32,000 nt of DNA. It comes from Candidatus Micrarchaeum sp. GTDB lineage: Archaea > Micrarchaeota > Micrarchaeia > Micrarchaeales > Micrarchaeaceae. The stretch is from assembly GCF_016806735.1 (NCBI RefSeq), contig NZ_CP060530.1:690001-722000 (forward strand). Reading direction: 5' to 3'. The translations under genes were made by a program, and so were the position numbers. The first letter of the stretch is position 1. Each line of letters opens with the position of its first letter. Positions 2,500-32,000 of this stretch are shown one piece after another. The notes under the pieces are model-generated. The model was given only the letters and a program-made list of their open reading frames with translations. It was not told where the DNA came from and searched no databases.

Positions 2500-3918
2500 A
2501 TGGCAAAGACGTACATAGATATAGTAAAATACATGATAGAAGCCAGATTTGAAATATCCGGCTCGGTTGAAAAACCAGATATAATAGGTGCAATATTCGG
2601 CCAGACCGAAGGCCTTCTTGGACCTGATCTGGACCTTAGGGAATTGCAGAAAAACGGCAAGATAGGCCGCATAGAGATCGAAAGCGGATCCACCAACAAC
2701 AAGACGTACGGAAAGCTGATGCTGCCAAGCTCTTTAGGCAAGGTAGAAACGTGCATACTTGCAGCTGCGATAGAATCCGTTGACAGGGTCGGGCCATTCG
2801 AGACAAACTTCAAGATAGACAAGATAGACGACACCAGGAACGAGAAGCGCAACAAGGTTATAAACAGGGCAAAGGAGCTCGTCAAATCGCTGCTCACCAA
2901 CGTCATACCGGACAGCAAGGAGATAAGCGAGATGGTAGAGGCCGACGTAAAGTCAAGCACAGTAACACATTACGGCACGGACAACCTTCCGGCTGGGCCA
3001 GACATAGCGAAAAGCGACAGCGTAATAATAGTAGAAGGAAGGGCCGACGTGGTCAACCTGCTGAAAAGCGACATAACGAACTGCATTGCGGTTGGCGGGG
3101 CAACGGGCACCATACCAAAAACGATAACCGATCTTTGCGCACAGAAGGAGGTCACCCTTTTCGTTGACGGAGACAGGGGAGGGGACATAATATTCAAGGG
3201 AATATCGAATGTTGCAGACGTAGATTACGTAGCAAAGGCCCCAGACGGCAAGGAAGTGGAAGAGCTCACGCGAAAGGAGATAATAAAGGCGCTTAGGTCA
3301 AGGATACCATTCGAGCAGACTTCAGTGGGGAGGCAGCATGCGAAGGATGAGCAGCAGAACCAGCAGCACAGCAATGGAAACGGCCAAAGGCCACAACAGA
3401 GGCAGCAGCCGCAGAGGAACCAGGACAGCTATAAGGGCGAAGAAAGGCAGCAGAGGCGTAGCTACGAACCACGTGACGCACAGCAGGAAAGAAAGATATT
3501 GAGCCCAAGCGAGATAGCAACAAACCTCTCGGAAAGGCACCAGAACAGCACAAGAGAAGAAGGCGTAGTGGAAGAGGTCGAAGAAAGCAAGGATAGCATA
3601 GGAAGCATAGAATTCGACAACCATGCGAATGCCCCGGAGCCCTCTAAAAAATACATAGACGCGCTTGCGGAACTTAAGAATACACTCCGTGGCAGGCTAT
3701 ACGATGCGGATGGAAAGATGGTCAACGAGATACCGATAAGGGACCTGATACAGACAGTCCAGAGCACCGACGGCACGAATGCGATAGTATTCGACGGGAT
3801 AATAACACAGAGGCTCATAGAGCTGGCTTATGGGAAAGGAGTCAAGGAGATATATGGAATAAGGTCAAGCCAGATAACCAAGAAATATGGGGACCTGCTG
3901 CTTTACACCAAGGAGTGA
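2500..3918 (+). CDS. dnaG: Archaeal DnaG-type primase (TOPRIM) with an internal Q/R-rich low-complexity insert
   Basis: The N-terminus KTYIDIVKYMIEARFEISGSVEKPDIIGAIFGQTEGLLG is the conserved archaeal DnaG N-domain. TOPRIM motifs IIVEGRADVVNL and LFVDGDRGGD are present. ATG 2500 is preceded by GGGTGG with a 5-nt spacer. The track start at 2491 is an in-frame GTG. Confidence 0.85.
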   Translation: MAKTYIDIVKYMIEARFEISGSVEKPDIIGAIFGQTEGLLGPDLDLRELQKNGKIGRIEIESGSTNNKTYGKLMLPSSLGKVETCILAAAIESVDRVGPFETNFKIDKIDDTRNEKRNKVINRAKELVKSLLTNVIPDSKEISEMVEADVKSSTVTHYGTDNLPAGPDIAKSDSVIIVEGRADVVNLLKSDITNCIAVGGATGTIPKTITDLCAQKEVTLFVDGDRGGDIIFKGISNVADVDYVAKAPDGKEVEELTRKEIIKALRSRIPFEQTSVGRQHAKDEQQNQQHSNGNGQRPQQRQQPQRNQDSYKGEERQQRRSYEPRDAQQERKILSPSEIATNLSERHQNSTREEGVVEEVEESKDSIGSIEFDNHANAPEPSKKYIDALAELKNTLRGRLYDADGKMVNEIPIRDLIQTVQSTDGTNAIVFDGIITQRLIELAYGKGVKEIYGIRSSQITKKYGDLLLYTKE

Positions 3919-3925
3919 AAATACT

Positions 3926-3950
3926 CCTTTCTTTTTTCCTTTTTTGTCTT
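3926..3950 (+). terminator. Oligo-T tract downstream of dnaG (archaeal-type terminator)
   Basis: ccTTTcTTTTTTccTTTTTTgtcTT lies immediately after the dnaG stop. Archaeal termination is known to use T-runs. Confidence 0.45.
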
Positions 3951-4001
3951 TGAGATCAGCGTAGCGCAGGTAAGGCAAATCTAGTTAAGCTATAAATATT
4001 T

Positions 4002-4025
4002 AACTATTTTAAATTTAAAATAGTT
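4002..4025. promoter_or_regulatory. Perfect 24-nt palindrome (putative PadR operator) between the TATA box and the PadR gene start
   Basis: aactattttaaatttaaaatagtt equals its own reverse complement. It directly follows a TATA-like ctataaatattt (3990-4001) and lies about 50 nt upstream of the PadR ATG. Confidence 0.55.
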
Positions 4026-4077
4026 TAGATTTAAACCATTTTTAAACTGGCAGTTTTTGCAAAAATTGAGTGAAGGC

Positions 4078-4434
4078 ATGGACAAAAAGGAGTTCAGCAC
4101 CAAGTACATGAGCAAGGAAATGCGCAGGATGATATTCAAGCTCATGCTACTGAGCGAGATAAAGGAGAAGAAAAGATATCCCTACGAGCTGATAGAGCTA
4201 ATGGCAACTCAGAAGGCCGCGTTCATAGGATCCAAGAAGGACGAGATAAAGAACGACATTTACAATATAATAAGGGGCCTTGAAAAATCGGGCTACGTGA
4301 AGATTGTCTCGAGCAACGGTAGAAAGCAGGACAAAAAATACTACAAAATTACCCCCCAGGGGAGGGCGGCTCTTCTTAAGTCAAAGAAGCTGATGCTGAG
4401 CTACATGAAGGAGCTCGTGAGGCTTGTAAAGTAG
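4078..4434 (+). CDS. PadR-family winged-helix transcriptional regulator
   Basis: A small (118 aa from ATG 4078) protein with KKRYPYELIELM...IYNIIRGLEKSGYVKIV...KKYYKITPQGRAAL, the typical PadR wHTH signature. The track start at 4057 is a TTG. Confidence 0.7.
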   Translation: MDKKEFSTKYMSKEMRRMIFKLMLLSEIKEKKRYPYELIELMATQKAAFIGSKKDEIKNDIYNIIRGLEKSGYVKIVSSNGRKQDKKYYKITPQGRAALLKSKKLMLSYMKELVRLVK

Positions 4435-4442
4435 GTGTATTG

Positions 4443-5435
4443 ATGGCGGGAGAAGTCATAGAGATAAAGAACCTTGTCAAGAGGTTTGGGGATTTCACTG
4501 CAGTAAACGGCATAAGCCTCGGCATAAAGGAAAATGAGATATTTGGAATCCTTGGCCCAAACGGCGCAGGTAAGACTACCACGATAAACATGCTGCTAGG
4601 GCTCATAATTCCGACAGAAGGCACGATAATCGTAGACGGATACAACATAAGAAAGAACCCGGAGATTATAAAGGAGAAGATGGGCTTGATGACCCAGGAA
4701 ACGGTGGTCGACGGAGACTTGACAGCCCAGCAGAACCTTGAGATATTTGCAGAGCTTTATGGAATGAAAGGGAAGGACAAGGAAGAAGCCATAAATTACG
4801 CGCTTGAAGAGGCAGACCTGGTAAATTTCAGGAATGCAAAGGCCGGATCTTTCTCTGGAGGAATGCAGAGGAGGCTTAACCTGGTAAAATCCATGCTGCA
4901 TAGCCCCAAGATACTTGTTTTGGACGAGCCGACAACAGGTCTTGACGTGCAGAACAGGGTAAGCATGTGGGACAGGATAAGGAAGCTCAACAAGAGCGGC
5001 GTCACGATAATACTTACTACCCAGTATTTGGAAGAGGCCGACTCGCTGTGCAATAGGATTGCAATAATAGACCACGGACAGCTCAAGGCGATAGGAACAC
5101 CCGGAGAGCTCAAAAAGATGGTTAGCGAGGGCAACATAATAGACATATCATTAAGGTTTGAAGACATAGAAAAGGCGCAGAAGGCGTTAAAGCAGAAGTT
5201 GAAGATGGATTGCAAAGTAGTGGCGGATAGGATAAGCATAAATGCAGGGAAGGAGGACGTCAAAACTCTGAGCTCCATAATATCTGTTCTTGAAAAAGAG
5301 AAGATACCTATAATTGCTGCCTCGATGCACCTGCCAACGTTGGATGACGTGTTCATAAGCCTAACTGGAGGAACGATAAGAGACGAGCTTGGAGAGCAGA
5401 AATCAAACGCATCCAAGATAATGTGGAGGAGATGA
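4443..5435 (+). CDS. ABC transporter ATP-binding protein (ABC-2/DrrA-like exporter type)
   Basis: Walker A GPNGAGKTT, signature FSGGMQRR, Walker B ILVLDEPTTGLD and H-loop TTQYLEEA. An AGGTG lies just upstream of ATG 4443. Confidence 0.9.
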   Translation: MAGEVIEIKNLVKRFGDFTAVNGISLGIKENEIFGILGPNGAGKTTTINMLLGLIIPTEGTIIVDGYNIRKNPEIIKEKMGLMTQETVVDGDLTAQQNLEIFAELYGMKGKDKEEAINYALEEADLVNFRNAKAGSFSGGMQRRLNLVKSMLHSPKILVLDEPTTGLDVQNRVSMWDRIRKLNKSGVTIILTTQYLEEADSLCNRIAIIDHGQLKAIGTPGELKKMVSEGNIIDISLRFEDIEKAQKALKQKLKMDCKVVADRISINAGKEDVKTLSSIISVLEKEKIPIIAASMHLPTLDDVFISLTGGTIRDELGEQKSNASKIMWRR

Positions 5436-5437
5436 AA

Positions 5438-6592
5438 ATGTCGAACATAGTCATTTCTACCCTGCAGAAAGCTTACATACTGTACAAAAGGGACATGCTC
5501 ATATTCAAGAGCAACATAAGGGCGAACATAGTCAGGACAATCCTCTTCCCGCTAATAATACTGATATTCTTCAGCAACATAGGGGCGGTTGCCCACAACG
5601 TGCCCGTAGGAGTTGTGAATACCGCGAACAACGCCAATTCTTACAAATTTGTTCAGGCACTCTATGCAACTTCTTCGGACGGCCTGTTCAAGGTTGTTAG
5701 CATACCTTCGATAAGCCAGGGAATGTCGGAAGTTGACTCCGGACAGGTTTCGCTTCTATTGATAATAAACCCAACTGTAGGCTCCAAATCCTCAAGCACA
5801 GGAATACTGGCTTACTACAGCAGCCCAGATGCCTCCACGGTAGAAGGCATATTGCCCACCATAAGCAGCGTCGCTTCGGAATTCTATTCAGGCATAGGAT
5901 CCAGGGGCATAGTGCCGCTAAACGCACAACCGCAGGCCCCCGACACCGAGTTTGCACCGACGCTAACTTCAGGGCTTTCAACAAACTACGAGGACTTTTT
6001 GGTTGGAGGCGTAATAGCGCTTGTTGCAGTATTCGGCACCCTTTTCGGAGGAGGCTTCACGCTCATAACGGACAAGCAGCTAGGAAACCTCAAGGCGCTT
6101 TTAATAACGCCTTTGAACAGGTCCTCGGTGATGCTTGGAAAAACCATTTACACCCTAACGTTATCAGTAATAAGCACGCTGCTCGTCATAGTCATATCCC
6201 TGTTCTTCGGGACCACGATACTGATGGGATTTGTAGGCGTAGTATGGATATTCATACTCGTCCTAATGCTCACGCTCGGATTTACCGGCATATCGCTGAT
6301 AATGGCTTCCAGGGTCAAGAAGCCAGAAATTTATGCGATATTCACCCAGACAATAGCGCTTCCGCTATGGTTCCTCAGCGGCGCGTTCTTCCCGGCAGCG
6401 TCAATGCCAACTTGGATGAGGGTAATATCCACAGTGAATCCAATGACGTATGCGGTTGACGGCATAAGAGATGTAATGATAACCGGCTCGTATCCGCTCA
6501 GCACGGCTCTGCCACAGATAGGCATACTGGCGCTGTTCGCGGTCATAATGCTAGGTTTGGCGATTAAACTGTTCAAGGTGCAAATAGCATGA
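5438..6592 (+). CDS. ABC-2 type transporter permease
   Basis: One N-terminal TM, a large extracytoplasmic loop, then about 5 C-terminal TMs, which is the classic ABC-2 permease layout. GGAGGAG lies 6 nt upstream of ATG 5438, which starts 3 nt after the ATPase stop. Alternative starts are at 5423 and 5432. Confidence 0.8.
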   Translation: MSNIVISTLQKAYILYKRDMLIFKSNIRANIVRTILFPLIILIFFSNIGAVAHNVPVGVVNTANNANSYKFVQALYATSSDGLFKVVSIPSISQGMSEVDSGQVSLLLIINPTVGSKSSSTGILAYYSSPDASTVEGILPTISSVASEFYSGIGSRGIVPLNAQPQAPDTEFAPTLTSGLSTNYEDFLVGGVIALVAVFGTLFGGGFTLITDKQLGNLKALLITPLNRSSVMLGKTIYTLTLSVISTLLVIVISLFFGTTILMGFVGVVWIFILVLMLTLGFTGISLIMASRVKKPEIYAIFTQTIALPLWFLSGAFFPAASMPTWMRVISTVNPMTYAVDGIRDVMITGSYPLSTALPQIGILALFAVIMLGLAIKLFKVQIA

Positions 6593-24533: not shown

Positions 24534-25811
24534 ATGTCAGACAAACCCCACATGAACCTGATCTTCATCGGGCACGTAGACCACGGCAAGTCAACAACCG
24601 TAGGAAGGTTGCTTTACGAGACGCACGTCATAACGGACAGGGATATACAGAGATACAAGGAGTTAACGCAGCAGATGAACAGGCCGACGTTCGAATTCGC
24701 ATTCGTCATGGACCAGCTCAAGGAGGAGCGTGAAAGAGGTATAACCATAGACATAATGCACAGGGATTTCCAGACGCCTAAATACTACTTCACGATAATA
24801 GACGCCCCTGGTCACAGGGACTTCGTAAAGAACATGATTACAGGAGCAAGCCAGGCAGACGCAGCAGTTCTCGTAGTGAGCGCAGTGGATGGAGTCCAGG
24901 CTCAGACAAGGGAGCACGCGATACTGGCGAACGTTCTTGGAATAGCACAGATGATAGTTGGAGTCAACAAGATGGACGCAGCCAACTATGACCAGAAGAA
25001 GTTTGAAGAGGCAAAGGCAAACGTACAGCAGCTGCTAAAGTCTCTAGGCTACAGGAACGTGGACGCGATAAACTTCGTTCCTTATTCCGCACTTGCAGGA
25101 GACAACGTAGCCGCAAAGTCGGACAAGATGCCGTGGTACAACGGGCCTACCCTTTTGGGATCCTTGGACCTGCTGACAGTTCCGGCAAAGCCCACGGACA
25201 AGCCATTGAGGCTTCCGATACAGGACGTTTACAGCATTTCAGGATTCGGAACCGTTCCGGTAGGAAGGGTAGAAACTGGAGTGATGAAGCCTGGAGACCA
25301 GGTAATCATAATGCCGAGCGGCGCAAAGGCCGAAGTTAAGAGCATAGAAATGCACCACCAGCAGCTGCAAAAGGCAGAGCCAGGAGACAACGTAGGATTC
25401 AACATCAAGGGCGTTGACAGGAAAGATGTCAAGCGCGGAGACGTTGTGGGGCCGACAAGCAACCCGCCAATGGTAGTGAGCGAGTTTAAGGCGCAGATAA
25501 TAATACTGCACCACCAGAACGTAATAGCCAAGGGCTACACGCCTGTATTCCACATACACACGGCGCAGATTGCATGCACCATAACGGACATCTTGGAAAA
25601 GAAGGATCCGAAGACCGGCCAGGTATTGGAGCAGAACCCAGAAACAATAAAGACTGGTGACATCGCCATAGTCAAGATAAAGCCGACGAAGCCAATATGC
25701 GCTGAGAAGTACAGCGATTTCCCGCAGCTAGGAAGGTTCGCAATAAGGGACATGGGAGAAACCGTAGGCGCAGGAGTCATATTGGATGTGACACCGGCAC
25801 AGGGCAAATGA
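24534..25811 (+). CDS. tuf: Translation elongation factor EF-1 alpha
   Basis: [30 protein letters not shown] and the C-terminal beta-barrel domains. 425 aa. GGTGA lies 5 nt upstream of the ATG. Confidence 0.95.
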
Positions 25812-26238: not shown

Positions 26239-27300
26239 TCATTCTTTCGTAAGAAGGCGTATGTAGCTGTCGTACCTGTCCCTGCGGATCAGCCCTTCTT
26301 CAACCGCTTTTTTCACTGCACATCCTGGCTCATGCGAATGCGTGCAGTCCCTGAATTTGCAGTTTTGGGAAAACTCGGCAAATTCAGGATAATAAAGCCG
26401 AAGAGAATCTTTGTCTATTCCCCACATGCCGAGCGAGCGTATCCCGGGAGTGTCGATGAGCATTGTGGATTCTCCAAGAAGGTGCAATGAGGTAGTCGAA
26501 GTGGTATGAGTGCCTTTTCCTGATTTCCTGCCCACTTCGTCAGTCAGCAGCACTTCGTCGCCCAAAAGGCTGTTTATAAGTGACGATTTTCCAACCCCAC
26601 TGCTGCCTATCATGACGCATATTTTCCCTTTTATATAAGGAAGAAGCCTGTCAACGCCGTCCTTTGTTGCGTTTGAAACCTTAACCACTGGAAGATCGGC
26701 GCTTTCATACATGGATAAGTCAGGAGCCTTGGCCAAATCTGTTTTGGTAATGCAAAGCAATGGGCTTACATTTCCATACTGGCTTATTACGAGATACCTG
26801 TCCACCAGATTCGGATTGAACGGCGGCTGCACGGTCGAAGCTACTATCACCGCAATGTCTATATTTGCAGCAATAATGTGCTCTTCTGCACGAAGCACGG
26901 ACTTTTTCGATGTGTCCATGCGCAGCCTCGCAAGCTTTGAACGCCTGACGGTTATGCCTTTTATTATTGGGTTCTTGCCTTCAAGCGCAAAGATAACATT
27001 GTCCCCTATTGCTAGCTGGTCCAGAAGGTCCAGCTGGTAATCCGTTTCCGCTTTTCCCAATATGAAATGTTTATCGTGCAGGAGAGTGAATTTCGGAGGA
27101 TTAAGCTCGGCAAGTATGCCTATGCTGCCCAGTTTCTGGGCCTCGTTATTTTCGTAGACTTCTAGGTCGGCCCGGCTGCCAGTGCTTCCAATGCGGCTGT
27201 ATTCTGAGTCGTCGCCGGTGCTGTTGGCCTGCCTGAGAGATTTGATGCGCATTGCCCTGCGCGTCTTCCAATGCTCGGCATGACTGCCCTTGTTCTTCAT
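26239..27300 (-). CDS. rsgA: Ribosome small-subunit-dependent GTPase A (RsgA/YjeQ), circularly permuted GTPase
   Basis: The G-motif order is permuted: G4 ITKTD, then G1 GSSGVGKSS, then G3 DTPG. The C-terminal zinc knuckle is CKFRDCTHSHEPGC. An N-terminal OB region carries an extension of about 70 aa. Confidence 0.85.
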   Translation of the reverse strand: MKNKGSHAEHWKTRRAMRIKSLRQANSTGDDSEYSRIGSTGSRADLEVYENNEAQKLGSIGILAELNPPKFTLLHDKHFILGKAETDYQLDLLDQLAIGDNVIFALEGKNPIIKGITVRRSKLARLRMDTSKKSVLRAEEHIIAANIDIAVIVASTVQPPFNPNLVDRYLVISQYGNVSPLLCITKTDLAKAPDLSMYESADLPVVKVSNATKDGVDRLLPYIKGKICVMIGSSGVGKSSLINSLLGDEVLLTDEVGRKSGKGTHTTSTTSLHLLGESTMLIDTPGIRSLGMWGIDKDSLRLYYPEFAEFSQNCKFRDCTHSHEPGCAVKKAVEEGLIRRDRYDSYIRLLTKE

Positions 27301-27478
27301 GATATAAGTTTGGCACGTATAGATTTAAAGTAGCCACAGTGTTGTTTGTAGGTATAAATATTAATATGATATTTGAGCTATGGAAATCTGTTGATATATG
27401 TATTGCTTAGTTCAAGTACTGCATATTTAATAAATTTGCCAGTATTCATTTATTTGAAGCAAATGTTTTGGTGCAATA

Positions 27479-28459
27479 ATGCAAAATGACATTGATGCAA
27501 AAATTCTCCAGTGGAAAAGAGACCTTATTGAACATATAGTATATCTTGTGTGCTCAAAACAAAAAATCCCAACACCATATATAAACTTTGATGGATGTAG
27601 AGACGAAAGACCTAACCAGCTTGCACATTATCATCCCGATCAGCACATGATATGCGTATCTGAAAGGCAACTCCGCGTACAAAGTCTAGAAGGATTAAAA
27701 AGGACTGCAGTACACGAAGTAACACATGCATTAGGTTTTTATCAGCATGACGCCAATTTCGAGAATATGAATAGGGAGATAAACATAGAATTGGCTATGT
27801 ACAATCCAAGCAGTGTGATAAGCGGATTGGATAGAACTAAAACAGCAAATAAACCAACGCATACACGCAAAATAAGGACTGGGATCAGTGTATGCTCTGC
27901 TAATGGGTGCAACAAAAAGGCAATAAATATCTGCAGATATTGCATGAAGCGCTATTGCCAAATACATTCTGAGGCGCTGATGGTTTCTACTCTGGAGCAA
28001 ATAAATATGCTTAATCAATACGATGGAAAAAAACGCATAAAACTCGAAAAAGACTGGAATAAAGAGGGTGGCCATCCATGCATGCAATACACTGCAGAAT
28101 GGAATAACTGGTATGACGAAAGTAAAAAGATGACGTATGACGCTTTTGGCGCATTTCTGGGAGACGATAAGAGGATAACAGGCATAGCAAAAGAGCCTCC
28201 TTCTTTGTTTGTATACCCTATAGAGAATAGCACAAAAAATAAACTAAAAGAAAGCTATTCTCCTCTTACACAAAAGGATTTGGAAGATTCGAGAGATAAG
28301 CTTGGAATTGATATTGATTATACACAACCAGTAAAACCGGTTAAGAATGATGAGAGCAACAATGATGCAAAAGATAAGGAAATTGAAAAACCGGACAATA
28401 AAAAGAAAAAGAGCTTAGTAAATAAATTAAGAAAAGTTTTTGGAGTTAGAGATACATAG
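27479..28459 (+). CDS. Zincin metallopeptidase (HExxH...H, SprT/WLM/DUF45-like) fused to an AN1-like Cys/His zinc-finger cluster and a charged tail
   Basis: AVHEVTHALGFYQHD at aa 79-90 gives HExxH plus a third His. CSANGCNKKAINICRYCMKRYCQIH at aa 139-163 has the spacing C-x4-C-x7-C-x2-C-x4-C-x2-H. A later HPC lies at aa 199-201. The tail is K/D/E-rich. Confidence 0.65.
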   Translation: MQNDIDAKILQWKRDLIEHIVYLVCSKQKIPTPYINFDGCRDERPNQLAHYHPDQHMICVSERQLRVQSLEGLKRTAVHEVTHALGFYQHDANFENMNREINIELAMYNPSSVISGLDRTKTANKPTHTRKIRTGISVCSANGCNKKAINICRYCMKRYCQIHSEALMVSTLEQINMLNQYDGKKRIKLEKDWNKEGGHPCMQYTAEWNNWYDESKKMTYDAFGAFLGDDKRITGIAKEPPSLFVYPIENSTKNKLKESYSPLTQKDLEDSRDKLGIDIDYTQPVKPVKNDESNNDAKDKEIEKPDNKKKKSLVNKLRKVFGVRDT

Positions 28460-28526
28460 GTCAGGCACTATTTTATATGTAAGTTGTTTTATATTTGGTT
28501 TTGGGATCTTTTATCTGTGAAATTAC

Positions 28527-28907
28527 ATGAAACTTATCTACGCAAAATTATGGCTTAAGAAATACATTAAGTATAACCATGATAATTTAGACGAAAACGA
28601 TCTAAATAAAGCAATAATTAACCTTTCTCACAGGGTATTCAGATCACATGGGTTAAAGGACCACAACACTAGGCAAAAAATAAGGCAGATCTTAGTAAAT
28701 TATAGTAAAATTGAATTAGCCAAATATAACGTTTCTTTCGAAAAACCCCTCAAAGCACACTATATAAACCATGGCAAATATCCAAGAGTACGTGCACGTT
28801 GGGCAATGAGAGTTGTCAAGCGTATTTTACTATTTTTAGCAAAAATTGCTTATATTATAATAGTGGTAATTATTATTTTGTACATTATTTTTTATGTTCT
28901 CCAATAG
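28527..28907 (+). CDS. Hypothetical small basic protein with a C-terminal (tail-anchor) TM helix
   Basis: 126 aa. A lysine/arginine-rich soluble part is followed by ILLFLAKIAYIIIVVIIILYIIFYVL at the extreme C-terminus. Confidence 0.5.
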   Translation: MKLIYAKLWLKKYIKYNHDNLDENDLNKAIINLSHRVFRSHGLKDHNTRQKIRQILVNYSKIELAKYNVSFEKPLKAHYINHGKYPRVRARWAMRVVKRILLFLAKIAYIIIVVIIILYIIFYVLQ

Positions 28908-28943
28908 TTTCATTTTTAACATTTACCCAATTCTAAAGTCACA

Positions 28944-29077
28944 AGACCGCAAGAGGTTAGGCATAAATAAGTCAACTCTGTAGTATATGCAGAAGCACAT
29001 AAGAGAAGGCAAGAGAATCAAGGTTTATGGCAAAGTTATGGTAAAATTAAATAGTGTTGTTTATGGGTTTATTTGAT
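28944..29077 (+). repeat. 134-bp direct repeat, copy 1
   Basis: Aligned by eye to 31181-31314 at a constant offset of 2237 nt. There are only 3 mismatches (28953, 28955, 29039). Its 3' end contains the ATG and the first five codons (MGLFD) of the downstream ORF. Confidence 0.9.
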
Positions 29078-29866
29078 TTCCTTTTATGGCATCCTAAGGA
29101 AGAACGCTTATATAAAAGCTGGAATCATAGAAAATGGACTTGGGCAGGTCAGAAAATAGAACAAACAATATCAATAAACGAGGCAGTTGTTCGTATTTAC
29201 TGTGATCCTAATGATATTTCAGATGTGTATAAATGTACATTTAAAATATCTAAAGGAATATGCAGAATTAGAATAAGAAATTTTATTGATCAATTTAATA
29301 AGTTGCATAAAGAATATTGGTTAACTACTCCAGTAAATAATATCAAATTTAAGAAAGAAACAATTAGAAAAGCAATGCAGGGGCAAACATATGGTGGTAA
29401 GTATACTTATCCGGTAACTACTTACTTGTATACATTGAGAATTTTAGATAAAAATAAACTGAAAAATGAGAATATACAATCCCAAATTATTAGGAGACGA
29501 GGTACAGCAATAGTAGATACCCCAAAAGGGATACTTATTGCATCTCATCATAAAACTTGGCTTCTGCCAGGTGGAGGTGCAAATAGAGGAGAAAGTAGGG
29601 AAAAGGCAGCTATACGGGAACTAAGAGAGGAAACAGGATTACGAGCAACAAATTGTAAATATCTATTTGAATACAATGAACCAGATGATGGCAGAAGGAT
29701 TAGGAATCTGCATAAAGTATTTTTGATTGAAGCAGAAGGTAAACCCAGGCCAAATCATCATGATGTTCACCACTTAGCATTCTGGAAACCAGATTCAGAT
29801 ATCATTTTGAGTCCAACCACAAGAACAATTGTTGATAGATATCTAAATGAGTTTAAAATGCACTGA
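29063..29866 (+). CDS. Nudix hydrolase with an N-terminal domain of about 140 aa and unknown function
   Basis: The Nudix box GGGANRGESREKAAIRELREETGL is encoded at 29570-29641. The N-terminal half has no motif I recognise. I prefer ATG 29063 (MGLFDF...) over the track GTG 29054 because the same ATG context recurs in repeat copy 2. Confidence 0.75.
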   Translation: MGLFDFLLWHPKEERLYKSWNHRKWTWAGQKIEQTISINEAVVRIYCDPNDISDVYKCTFKISKGICRIRIRNFIDQFNKLHKEYWLTTPVNNIKFKKETIRKAMQGQTYGGKYTYPVTTYLYTLRILDKNKLKNENIQSQIIRRRGTAIVDTPKGILIASHHKTWLLPGGGANRGESREKAAIRELREETGLRATNCKYLFEYNEPDDGRRIRNLHKVFLIEAEGKPRPNHHDVHHLAFWKPDSDIILSPTTRTIVDRYLNEFKMH

Positions 29867-29886
29867 GCATATAAATGAGCTACAAT

Positions 29887-30693
29887 TTAGCCATTATATA
29901 CTGCATAGTGGTGTTGAATAGAATACCCAATCGGTGAGGCACAGTTACTTTGTAACAACTGATTGTTCATGTAATTTATTATACTTTTAGCATCTGGTGA
30001 ATTAAGCACAATACTTTGCCTTGGTGTTTGTGATAGGTTAACTATATTATTTACCCAACATGTAGTGTTACGGGCAGTTGCATTAACGTAATAAAATCCA
30101 CTCACATTATATTGCGCAGAGAAGCAAGTTTGTCCAAAATAACAATTTGTATAGTCTGTAATAGTTATCTGATCTGTCCAGTTTGCAGTCTGAAAGACAA
30201 CCTTCGAGTTATATGTTATCGATGGATAATACAAGAAGATGTAGGCAAGAATTAGTGGTACAACTATAAATGCAATCACATAGCCAATCATTTGTTTTTT
30301 CCTAGATGCAGAGATTATTTCGCCACTGCTCATTATTATGCCCCCAGCCAAAGCGACCAAAGGACCTATAAAAATATTAGACAACGTAGCAGCAGATGCA
30401 TATAGCCACATTACTGAACCAATACTAACTACAATACCTCGCCTTATAATTAACCCAATTGGGATTGCAAATAGAGTTAATAAGATTGCCAATTGAGGTA
30501 GTGAAGTAACGGTTAGTCCTTGGCCTGCTAATACACCAAATGCACCAAAACCAAATATCGAAAATATTACATCATAATAAAATGTTGCTAGACTTGTTGG
30601 TGAACCAGCAAAAATCATCCACTCTACAAATAAAGAGATAAATACGATTATTGCACCAAAGAAAATTATTCCTTGGGCACCCCTTATATGCAT
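29887..30693 (-). CDS. Hypothetical polytopic membrane protein with a Cys/Asn-rich extracytoplasmic C-terminal domain
   Basis: About 5-6 hydrophobic helices in the first 160 aa are followed by a domain with N-x-S/T sequons and 5 Cys. A TATA-like agtataaaac lies about 35 nt upstream of the ATG. Confidence 0.65.
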   Translation of the reverse strand: MHIRGAQGIIFFGAIIVFISLFVEWMIFAGSPTSLATFYYDVIFSIFGFGAFGVLAGQGLTVTSLPQLAILLTLFAIPIGLIIRRGIVVSIGSVMWLYASAATLSNIFIGPLVALAGGIIMSSGEIISASRKKQMIGYVIAFIVVPLILAYIFLYYPSITYNSKVVFQTANWTDQITITDYTNCYFGQTCFSAQYNVSGFYYVNATARNTTCWVNNIVNLSQTPRQSIVLNSPDAKSIINYMNNQLLQSNCASPIGYSIQHHYAVYNG

Positions 30694-31180
30694 GTTAGAA
30701 CCTTCTAAAATTCATAATTGCTATGTTTTATACTTATGATGTGACTCGGGATAATTTTTCATTTTTCTGCCTACTTTTGTTTTTCGCTGTATATAGTACT
30801 TGATTTTGCTTTATTTATCTTTGTAATATAATAATTTCAGCAGGAAACTTTTTACATTTTTTGAATTGCTAAAACTATTTTAGAATTATGCTTTAAAGAA
30901 ACATGAAATTTTCCGATGGCAGATTTTTGCTTCGACGCCAAAAATAGTGGTGCAAAATCTCTTCACTAGATATAACTCCTAAACAGAATAGGGAGTAAGC
31001 TAATCGCCTGTAAAATGGACGTTGTGGAATGTATATCACTTGCTATATTTCGGTATACAATTCTGTGTGCTTATTGTGCTGATTATTATATACTTATCAA
31101 GCTTAAATTTAACATGCCAGAACTCTGAATAAATTTGGATACACAGATATTAGCAATAAGATGCTTAGATTAACGCAATG

Positions 31181-31314
31181 AGACCGCAAAAAGTTAGGCA
31201 TAAATAAGTCAACTCTGTAGTATATGCAGAAGCACATAAGAGAAGGCAAGAGAATCAAGGTTTATGGCAAAGTTAGGGTAAAATTAAATAGTGTTGTTTA
31301 TGGGTTTATTTGAT
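31181..31314 (+). repeat. 134-bp direct repeat, copy 2
   Basis: 131/134 identical to 28944-29077. Its 3' end contains the ATG (31300) and the MGLFD codons of the C2H2 ORF. Confidence 0.9.
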
Positions 31315-32000
31315 AGATTTAAAGAAGCAAATAACTTTATTAGCAAGCTTTCAAATGACTTGTTTAAATGCAACATTTGTGGCATGCTCAGCAAGAATCA
31401 ACAGTCTATGCAAAATCACGTTGCTGGATTCCACAGCGAATACGTATTCTATAAACGTAAATATGGAAAAATTCCAGATATAGCAACAACCACTTGGATT
31501 AATATTTATTATAGAATATTGTATATGCCGCCTTTAAATTGGTCTGATAAACAGATAGAACTGGCTGCGAGCACGAATAAAGGCTTTATTATGAATGTTA
31601 CAAGAAGCATTCGACGGGTAGTTATTGATGGAAAAACAATTGGATATGTTAATCCTGTTTTAGGTGTAAATCCTCTTTTTAACTCACCCCCTCTTTATGG
31701 CCGACGTGCGTATATTCTTTTAGATCCGATTAACGGTAATACTTTTCCAGTTTCTAGAGAAGTTTTTGAAAGTATCAGTAAAGGAACGGCTTTAGAATAT
31801 CCCTTCCGTAGAGTTCACACAGTTAAGAGTACACCATTAAATGGGAATCAGAAACTAGTTGAGTTTTTAATTAGATTTAGAGAAGGAGGCTGGAACGGCC
31901 TGAGACTAGAGGATAAGAAAATACGTACTAAAGAGATACTTCCAACAGAAAGAATAACCTACGGTTATTCACCTTTAGATTTTATTCCAGATGCAAATAT
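31300..32000 (+). CDS. C2H2 zinc-finger protein, 3' end outside the window (not in the ORF track; hand-translated)
   Basis: Open from ATG 31300 to the window end (233 codons, no stop). The N-terminus is MGLFDRFKEANNF... The classical C2H2 finger CNICGMLSKNQQSMQNHVAGFH (C-x2-C-x12-H-x4-H) is encoded at 31369-31434. Confidence 0.65.
   Translation, partial: MGLFDRFKEANNFISKLSNDLFKCNICGMLSKNQQSMQNHVAGFHSEYVFYKRKYGKIPDIATTTWINIYYRILYMPPLNWSDKQIELAASTNKGFIMNVTRSIRRVVIDGKTIGYVNPVLGVNPLFNSPPLYGRRAYILLDPINGNTFPVSREVFESISKGTALEYPFRRVHTVKSTPLNGNQKLVEFLIRFREGGWNGLRLEDKKIRTKEILPTERITYGYSPLDFIPDAN

Follow-up and report, generated by a model that had tools for sequence, protein, structure and literature searches.

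An AT-rich gene island beside rsgA in a Micrarchaeum genome very probably derives from casposons inserted repeatedly at tRNA-Pro

An AT-rich block of orphan genes that adjoins rsgA in the genome of Candidatus Micrarchaeum sp. is, as we hold with high confidence, the accumulated debris of casposons that inserted repeatedly at a gene for tRNA-Pro(TGG). Casposons are self-synthesizing transposons that integrate by means of a casposase of the Cas1 family; they are rare and have been proposed as the ancestors of the CRISPR adaptation machinery. The stretch that we analyzed, called the window throughout, comprises 32,000 nucleotides of contig NZ_CP060530.1 (RefSeq assembly GCF_016806735.1, positions 690,001 to 722,000), and the block, called the island, begins near its right-hand end. 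The island lacks both an intact casposase and a family B DNA polymerase (PolB) of its own, and therefore it is casposon-derived and not itself a casposon. We observed the borders of the island, a tRNA gene with a terminal inverted repeat (TIR) and a target-site duplication, and an intact casposon there that is polymorphic among strains. The island itself contains fragments of cas1 and polB, a relic insertion junction and cargo open reading frames (ORFs) under purifying selection.

Contigs of other assemblies, cited here by L numbers, allowed the island to be followed past the end of the window, and positions beyond 32,000 are given as window-equivalents. Six such contigs (L001-L006) have 6.7-12.1 kb in common with the window at 99.98-100% identity, and the exact protein encoded by the island gene P5 is found on at least 23 public contigs. 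In 500-nt windows, G+C averages 0.471 across positions 1-27000 (standard deviation 0.035, minimum 0.396) and 0.336 across positions 27301-31800 (standard deviation 0.028, maximum 0.388), and the two ranges do not overlap (Mann-Whitney p = 2e-6). The drop from 0.47 to 0.34 starts precisely at the rsgA start codon, as a first-pass annotation made from the letters of the window had proposed. Its values for single lines were reproduced exactly (0.467 at 26461, 0.500 at 25261, 0.317 at 27301 and 0.217 at 29281). The long spacers that it described are real, for example the 606 nt between 30694 and 31299, as are its five ORFs: a zincin with a finger, a tail-anchored protein, a Nudix fusion, a membrane protein and a C2H2 protein. 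G+C at third codon positions is 0.54-0.63 in the genes for EF1A, S10, RsgA and CDC48, compared to 0.22-0.33 in the island ORFs. On L001, L003 and L004, the AT-rich island measures 6.77 kb at a G+C of 0.341 (window-equivalent 27301-34069), and extends 2.07 kb past the window end, up to a tRNA gene. Past 34069, G+C is back to 0.46, and the genes encode peptidase M13, the RFC small subunit and a DUF2070 protein. Tetranucleotide frequencies of the island correlate at 0.93 with those of the intact casposon described below and at 0.49 with those of the core chromosome; the chromosome and the right flank correlate at 0.90. The earlier view of the island as compositionally foreign accessory DNA of mobile-element origin is supported, and its low G+C is simply the composition of the casposon pool.

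The first-pass annotation had also pointed to the DNA beyond nt 32000 as the place to look for a tRNA gene or an att sequence, and this proved decisive. A tRNA scan of the window detected none, and the gene found beyond it is an intact tRNA-Pro(TGG) whose 3' end points toward the island and is followed by a TIR. Rfam returned nothing besides this tRNA. A conserved TIR motif of 55-70 nt (GGGGGTTATATATAGAAGCCCCAAATGTTGCCTTCTTCCAACATAGCTTTAGCA, beginning GGGGGTTATATATAGAAGCCCCAAATGTT) starts 10 nt past the tRNA-Pro 3' end. The same motif follows tRNA-Pro in L018, L024, L030 and L032 and tRNA-Ile in L010, and is more diverged in L014 and L038.

An intact casposon occupies this very site in near-identical strains. 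L002 is 100% identical to the window and splits from L001 exactly at the tRNA end. There, L002 and L037 read tRNA-Pro, CCCATTCTGTTTAT, a 72-nt TIR, polB (878 amino acids [aa], minus strand), small genes of 93, 97, 111 and 220 aa, a 315-aa gene, and the gene for Cas1 (389 aa). Cargo consisting of RGP, a GT1 glycosyltransferase and a 59-aa ORF follows, then the inverted TIR (1 mismatch in 72), CCCATTCTGTTTAT again and the island's own TIR. The sequence CCCATTCTGTTTAT is a 14-bp target-site duplication that flanks the L037 element on both sides, and it also separates the island TIR from tRNA-Pro. The casposon is 9.45 kb long (TIRs at L037 111-182 and 9485-9556, within the locus L037 1-9612), and the island TIR is approximately 80% identical to its TIR. 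The site is empty in L001, L003 and L004 (L001 6552-6700), and L005 and L006 hold a variant casposon (locus L005 1-6310) with a 97% identical cas1 and different cargo, namely an amino-acid kinase, Laminin_G_3 and a methyltransferase fragment. Near-identical strains thus carry three alleles at the tRNA-Pro site: empty, the RGP/GT1 casposon and the variant casposon.

The Cas1 protein of L037 matches Pfam Cas_Cas1 (8e-56), and in the PDB it comes closest to the casposase of Methanosarcina mazei (6OPM; E 7e-79, residues 3-385), compared to 2.5e-28 for the best CRISPR Cas1. We rejected a CRISPR-Cas context for this protein, since it matches a casposase best and its gene is accompanied by polB, TIRs and a target duplication; gene calling returned no further cas genes within approximately 10 kb. 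The 878-aa PolB gave no sequence match in Pfam or the PDB. It carries the ExoI (FDTET), A (DFTSMYPTQ), B (KIIANATSYG) and C (YCDTDS) motifs, and is 46% identical to a 918-aa protein of L038 with a weak DNA_pol_B match. An element of the same layout lies on a Nitrosopumilus contig (L045), with 58% identity in cas1, 44% in polB and 40-45% in two small genes. With a casposase, its own PolB, TIRs, a target duplication and a target at a tRNA end, the L037 element is a casposon as defined. Its TIRs, like those at L001 6635-6700 and L010 11840-11893, hold two hairpins (GGGG...CCCC and ATGTTG...CAACAT), the pairing of the second being preserved in other copies by the compensatory change ATGTTA...TAACAT. 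The TIR motif also has a TATA-like TTATATATA. In IMG/VR, the TIR pattern had a single match, on L036 (identical with contig L022), which lies within a coding repeat and was set aside as due to chance.

Remnants of this machinery lie within the island. A 134-nt direct repeat, 98% identical between its two copies, runs from upstream of P4 and of P6 into their first five codons (MGLFD), and each copy forms part of a cas1 3' end (Table 1). By tblastn, casposase residues 349-387 match 28933-29049 at 74-77% identity (E 2e-12 to 3e-12), and residues 341-387 match 31146-31286 at 62% identity (E 6e-11 to 1e-11). At the DNA level, the first copy and the intact cas1 3' end share 85% identity, and the translation of that copy reads QDRKRLGINKSTL*YMQKHIREGK..., with TAG replacing a Trp codon; the common reading of both stubs is ...DRK(R/K)LGINKSTL*YMQKHIREGKRIKVYGKV.... 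In both stubs, the TAG stands in place of a TGG (Trp) that is found in intact casposases and in stubs from other genomes, and a one-base frameshift in the tail is common to the two. Therefore, the pseudogenes were duplicated or homogenised after inactivation. Pyrrolysine insertion or other recoding of the in-frame TAG was rejected because intact relatives carry TGG and both window copies are frameshifted. The stub stop codons overlap the ATG of P4 in the first copy and that of P6 in the second. These two 3' stubs of approximately 45 codons are the cas1 remnants of the island, which is devoid of an intact casposase. The helix-turn-helix (HTH) that the first-pass annotation took for an excisionase type probably belongs instead to the pseudogenised C-terminal tail of a casposase. 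A 3' fragment of polB is also present as P7, where PolB residues 830-875 match window-equivalent 32405-32542 (85% over 46 aa, E 1.5e-10). When the whole window was searched with the casposon proteins by tblastn, the region outside the island gave only a 27-aa match (E 0.003) at E < 1e-2 and none below 1e-3.

The island also retains a relic of an older element end, in which a degenerate TIR tip (30966-30979) is followed by a diverged copy of the target (30983-30992) and approximately 8 nt of the tRNA-Pro 3' end. The relic reads CTAGATATAACTCC--TAAACAGAATAGGGAGTA, compared to CTATATATAACCCCCATAAACAGAATGGGGAGTA at the live junction. Its local alignment to the live junction of TIR, target duplication and tRNA scores 42, whereas the maximum among 300 block-shuffles was 29. 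The 8-nt segment is the only repeat of tRNA sequence in the island.

Table 1. Features of the island and its borders, with cas1 3' stubs of other genomes (w.e., window-equivalent)
Feature	Position	Strand	Description
rsgA	26239..27300	-	Host gene, left border; Pfam RsgA_GTPase 1.8e-47; G+C 0.49
Island, part in window	27301..32000	.	G+C 0.34 (left flank 0.47, right flank 0.46)
P2	27479..28459	+	Predicted minimal zincin (HEVTH), N-terminal, with Cys-rich AN1-like finger and disordered Lys-rich tail; putative retained cargo
P3	28527..28907	+	Small basic protein with C-terminal transmembrane tail; putative casposon cargo; homologue in L038
cas1 3' end pseudogene (casposase), copy 1	28933..29077	+	Includes repeat 28944-29077
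P4	29063..29866	+	N-terminal domain fused to predicted Nudix hydrolase; putative cargo; Pfam NUDIX 5.8e-15, aa 154-244
P5	29887..30693	-	Polytopic membrane protein with Cys/Asn-rich C-terminal domain; putative cargo; no family matches
Relic of older element end	30966..30997	+	Degenerate TIR tip, target sequence TAAACAGAAT and ~8 nt of tRNA-Pro 3' end
cas1 3' end pseudogene (casposase), copy 2	31146..31314	+	Includes repeat 31181-31314
P6	31300..32000 (ends at w.e. 32328)	+	N-terminal C2H2 finger; 233 of 342 codons in window
P7	w.e. 32345-32554		69 aa; polB 3' fragment
P8	w.e. 32557-33387		276 aa
P9	w.e. 33383-33667 = L001 7027-7311		94 aa
Uncalled ORF	w.e. 33678-33953 = L001 6741-7016		Cys-rich, 91 codons, between P9 and TIR
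tRNA-Pro(TGG)	w.e. 34070-34142 = L001 6552-6624	-	Right border; ARAGORN; Rfam tRNA 2e-7
cas1 3' stubs, other genomes	L018 2603-2747; L017 9880-10015; L014 8922-9004, 9886-10015; L041 2168-2316; L024 3281-3403

Related loci on other contigs show the same association. P6 is the signature cargo gene of such islands. Only 16 clusters of homologues were found among 5.8 billion proteins, all on Micrarchaeota-like contigs of acid-mine type. Seven distinct contexts of P6 were examined, and six of them (all except L020) place the gene in AT-rich DNA no more than a few kb away from a tRNA gene. The tRNA genes concerned are tRNA-Pro, tRNA-Ile, tRNA-Gln and one odd intron-like tRNA. A cas1 3' remnant precedes P6 in L010, L014, L017 and L018; none was detected before P6 in L012, and in L020 the match was short and confined to the start of the gene. 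As beside the island, tRNA-Pro is intact and the element begins 10 nt past it in L014, L018, L024, L030 and L038, and the layout beside the tRNA in L018 and L010 is a cas1 stub, cargo, a P7-like gene, one more gene and the TIR. At the tRNA-Pro of L024 lies a 3.4-kb element (3153-6546) that has both TIRs and lacks cas1 and polB, flanked by an 11-13-bp direct repeat, ATTTCTAAAAC(GG). Its layout is like that of the island (cas1 stub, cargo, P7-like gene, one further gene, TIR), and its genes encode a secreted repeat protein of 604 aa, a P7-like protein of 75 aa and a further protein of 276 aa. This arrangement suggests that elements of the L024 type are natural non-autonomous derivatives, that is, candidate mini-casposons. 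L010 7269-11926 and L018 1-4659 hold one and the same block (99.2% identical; HTH_34, a 182-aa gene, PemK toxin, P6, P7 and a 166-aa gene), which adjoins tRNA-Ile and FKBP in one contig and tRNA-Pro and RFC in the other. Either a very recent transfer or a chimeric assembly accounts for this difference in context. The low-G+C stretch of L010 (0.31-0.38) also covers the genes for isoleucyl-tRNA synthetase and arginase. In L017 (8564-11029), tRNA-Gln(CTG) is followed downstream by a 96-aa Phage_integrase fragment and small ORFs and then by a P6 homologue (85%); here the P6 part alone is AT-rich (0.32, compared to 0.5-0.58 in the flanks).

Taken together, we read the island as a series of superimposed insertions that occurred in the order that we infer as follows. 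The target would be the last few nucleotides of tRNA-Pro(TGG) and approximately 10 nt downstream, about 2 kb past the window end. A casposon would insert beside the tRNA and duplicate 14-15 bp of the target, thereby regenerating it, and the next insertion would land between the tRNA and the earlier copy. Older copies would thus be displaced from the tRNA and would lose cas1, polB and their termini by deletion. What would remain is the residue now seen: the cas1 and polB stubs, one intact TIR, one relic junction and the selected cargo ORFs P2-P9. Small derivatives bounded by TIRs would have been mobilised in trans, and P2-P3 would have arrived as casposon cargo. At least two, and probably three, stacked remnants make up the island on this reading. 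The unit nearest the tRNA would comprise a cas1 stub, P6, the polB stub (P7), P8, P9, the TIR, the target duplication and tRNA-Pro; the middle unit a cas1 stub, P4, P5 on the opposite strand and the relic junction; and the oldest unit P2-P3 beside rsgA, with no recognisable terminus. We think that P2-P9 are independent cargo genes kept after the transposon machinery decayed, and not one system.

Several observations weigh against repeated casposon insertion as the source of the whole island. The cas1 stub, P6 and the polB stub are co-directional, whereas cas1 and polB are divergent in the intact casposon, and therefore a simple internal deletion cannot yield the observed layout. The tRNA-like part of the relic junction is a few nucleotides longer than expected from a 14-bp duplication. 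The rsgA border (27301-27478) yielded no left TIR, cas1 stub or target duplication, nor did a left TIR turn up elsewhere; a 19-nt match at 27338-27356 was considered as a left terminus and rejected (p ~0.1). The casposon assignment of P2-P3 draws just on composition, on the P3 homologue described below and on cas1 stubs that adjoin P2 in relatives. Moreover, P2 adjoins rsgA in the sister species (L007 and L040), and between the window and the sister species dS is 1.18 for P2 and 1.10 for rsgA. The P2 part of the island is therefore old and now vertically inherited. The window itself has no intact cas1, polB or TIR; the tRNA gene, the TIR and the intact casposon are known from contigs of other assemblies of the same organism, and metagenome contigs can be chimeric, as the contexts of L010 and L018 illustrate.

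A variant of the casposon origin, which we regard as rather unlikely but which deserves a tentative hearing, would place the emphasis on the cas1 tail. The approximately 130-nt 3' segment of cas1 would be a conserved junction at which Micrarchaeota casposons capture and swap cargo, and the islands would be cassette arrays whose repeat unit is a cas1 tail and a cargo ORF with its ATG overlapping the cas1 stop. The short derivatives that consist of a cas1 tail, cargo, a polB-tail HTH and a TIR would then be natural mini-casposons mobilised in trans. This idea draws on the conservation of the stubs, whose DNA is 82-90% identical in L010, L014, L017, L018, L041 and L042 and 81-90% identical across L014, L017, L018, L024 and L041, and in L014 the P6 protein beside the stub is only 46% identical. 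Most stubs of other genomes retain the Trp codon and an open HTH-like frame of approximately 45 codons and are sometimes called as genes of 54-73 aa, which suggests that the cas1 3' segment is under selection. The tail segment precedes P3, P4, P6 or unrelated cargo, depending on the genome. The layout of L024 fits the same idea, as does the 99%-identical P6 block found beside tRNA-Ile in one contig and tRNA-Pro in another.

It is improbable, in our view, that the island is a native, vertically inherited and lineage-specific locus that became AT-rich through fast evolution and weak expression, with the casposon pieces incidental. Such a locus would account for the position and dS of P2 and for the lack of a left terminus, and it has a further argument in L014, where P4 and P6 adjoin tRNA-Pro, peptidase M13 and RFC (RFC 71% identical) and where P4 (52% identity, full length) and P6 (46%) have diverged to a degree like that of peptidase M13 (52%). 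The P4/P6 block of L014 is AT-rich as well (0.27-0.37, compared to flanks of ~0.5). The first-pass annotation had regarded gene order conserved in distant relatives as a sign of a vertically inherited core locus. Such synteny exists in part, with P2 by rsgA in the sister species and P4 and P6 by tRNA-Pro, M13 and RFC in a distant relative, but the island is not a core locus; repeated use of one insertion target and old retained cargo explain the partial synteny. Against native origin, the tetranucleotide signature fits the casposon and not the chromosome. A homologue of P3 (70% over 86 aa) is encoded by a 120-aa gene between cas1 and tRNA-Pro in L038, a locus with both polB and cas1. The dS of P6 is 0.26-0.37 relative to L017 and L018, whereas that of RFC is saturated (~3) relative to L018, and therefore the P6 block moved between lineages recently. 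The Nudix-coding part of P4 has 86% DNA identity to L014, compared to 68-73% for the flanking core genes. P6 also occurs at unrelated chromosomal sites, mostly near a tRNA gene. These dS values and DNA-identity mosaics led us to reject simple vertical inheritance as the whole story.

The first-pass annotation had offered two further origins. One was a conflict or defence module, in which protease, Nudix, membrane and finger proteins would cooperate whatever their source, and we consider this very improbable. In its favour, Nei-Gojobori dN/dS is 0.13 for P2 (relative to the sister species), 0.25 for P4, 0.20-0.40 for P6 and 0.25 for P7, and all four are under purifying selection. The block P2-P3-P4-P5 is intact in another lineage (L041) with a different left neighbour, peptidase M20 in place of rsgA, and the known cargo of casposons includes nucleases and other genes of a defence-like kind (PMC6563490). 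In PADLOC, the Nudix domain of P4 matches the candidate single-gene family PDC-S07 (1e-8), but apart from this generic match the system proteins found no counterpart, and a weak match of P7 (0.015) is not credible. PHROGs likewise returned nothing beyond generic Nudix matches. Moreover, cas1 pseudogene stubs stand between the genes, and gene content varies from locus to locus, with P6 among unrelated neighbours in L012, L017 and L020 and no P5 in L014. Identity to L041 ranges from 69% for P2 through 88% for P3 to 94% for P5, which points to a mosaic history and not to a single co-evolving unit.

The other proposal was a provirus remnant, or an element with a tyrosine integrase, that entered tRNA-Pro by att recombination with the casposon as a later neighbour. 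This is hardly credible: although the island abuts a tRNA 3' end, the relic holds tRNA-like bases past the 14-bp duplication in the manner of an att core and a Phage_integrase fragment lies near P6 and tRNA-Gln in L017, Pfam and PHROGs revealed no integrase, capsid, portal or terminase in the island ORFs, no relatives of P2, P6 or P8 came up in IMG/VR, a TIR of casposon type terminates the island, and cas1 and polB stubs lie within.

Repeated casposon insertion also accords with what is published on casposons. Tandem casposon arrays are known (PMC6563490), and the targets of euryarchaeal casposons take in the final 4-7 nt of tRNA genes (PMC4046053). The gene set of the L037 element matches the published definition of the family 1 casposons of Thaumarchaeota (NitSJ-C1, NitAR1-C1 and NitNF5-C1/C2; PMC4046053, PMC6563490). 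This likeness is one of gene set and order with L045: the two elements share cas1, a ~900-aa polB without Pfam match and two small genes upstream of polB. NitNF5-C1 and -C2 are inserted in tandem at one target, as here (PMC6563490). In contrast to family 1, the host is a DPANN archaeon of the Micrarchaeota, the target is the 3' end of tRNA-Pro and not ef-2 or another protein-coding gene, and the island has lost cas1 and polB and is not autonomous. The target resembles instead that of AciBoo-C1, the family 2 casposon of A. boonei, which lies just 3' of tRNA-Pro with a 14-15-bp duplication touching the tRNA end (PMC5137440, PMC4046053), given as 15 bp at the tRNA-Pro 3' end in PMC5137440. The AciBoo-C1 casposase also has a C-terminal HTH-like tail, like the casposase here. 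AciBoo-C1 differs in its PolB of the RNA-primed type, its HNH nuclease and its TIRs of 36-37 bp, compared to 72-nt TIRs and family-1-type genes here.

Casposons of Methanosarcina mazei are similar in their presence/absence polymorphism among near-identical strains and in the re-use of a tRNA-adjacent site; 6OPM, the best solved-structure match of L037 Cas1, is from this species, and Methanosarcina arrays are cited in PMC6563490. They belong to another family, another host and another target tRNA. To our knowledge, decay to a cargo-only island with conserved cas1 stubs has not been described for them. The L024 element, with TIRs and a duplication and without cas1 and polB, resembles miniature inverted-repeat transposable elements (MITEs) and the artificial TIR-flanked mini-casposons that the A. 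boonei casposase integrates in vitro (PMC5137440). Mini-casposons here would be natural ones mobilised in trans, and the right-hand unit of the window has only one recognisable TIR. Our literature search found no report of casposons in Micrarchaeota, which is not proof that none exists. The host phylum, the combination of family-1-type genes with a tRNA-Pro target, the three alleles at one site and the decay series with conserved cas1 stubs before cargo all appear to be new. Tandem casposons and the targeting of tRNA-Pro are already published.

Evidence for recent casposon mobility comes mainly from comparisons of Methanosarcina strains. Here, three alleles at one site stand beside a fossil record of earlier insertions in a DPANN member of the Micrarchaeota with a genome of approximately 1 Mb. 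The locus is therefore a natural system for studying target choice, cargo turnover and the decay of casposons into genes retained by the host. A casposon origin accounts for the block of "orphan" genes, and it is a caution against calling such AT-rich islands defence systems.

Individual island proteins have few relatives. P3, P5, P8 and P9 have no family matches in Pfam, PHROGs or PADLOC, and the Pfam matches of P2 are weak (SprT-like 0.03, below threshold; zf-AN1 0.005). Residues 1-105 of P2 were modelled by AlphaFold2 (AF2) at a pLDDT of 70-86, and the top Foldseek matches of the model are the minigluzincins selecase and jannalysin (probability 1.0, but E only 5e-3 and TM 0.54). H79, E80, H83 and H90 of P2 are invariant among homologues. 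The Nudix domain of P4 is, on the strength of its Pfam match, a bona fide one. In P6, Cys24, Cys27, His40 and His45 are invariant in 14 homologues, the structure was predicted at a pLDDT of 67, and Foldseek found no PDB match with E < 0.05. P9 contains the sequence GNSMFPT, which recalls the S24/S26 peptidase motif, and has no Pfam match.

The host gene at the left border is itself unusual. RsgA (YjeQ) is a typically bacterial ribosome-assembly GTPase, and here its gene adjoins those for EF1A and S10 in a DPANN archaeon. A search of genome contigs for RsgA returned three loci only; the closest matches are from Candidatus Micrarchaeota archaeon (87%) and Candidatus Mancarchaeum sp. (58%), and the nearest outside Micrarchaeota is from an uncultured bacterium (L009, 37% identity). 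The closest matches identify the host as an acid-mine (ARMAN-type) member of the DPANN Micrarchaeota. Its rsgA gene may be an old acquisition from bacteria. In the sister species (L007 2397-6977), approximately 4.6 kb separate rsgA from S10-EF1A, which are adjacent in the window, and this interval includes genes for proteins of 198 and 218 aa and for a methyltransferase-like protein.

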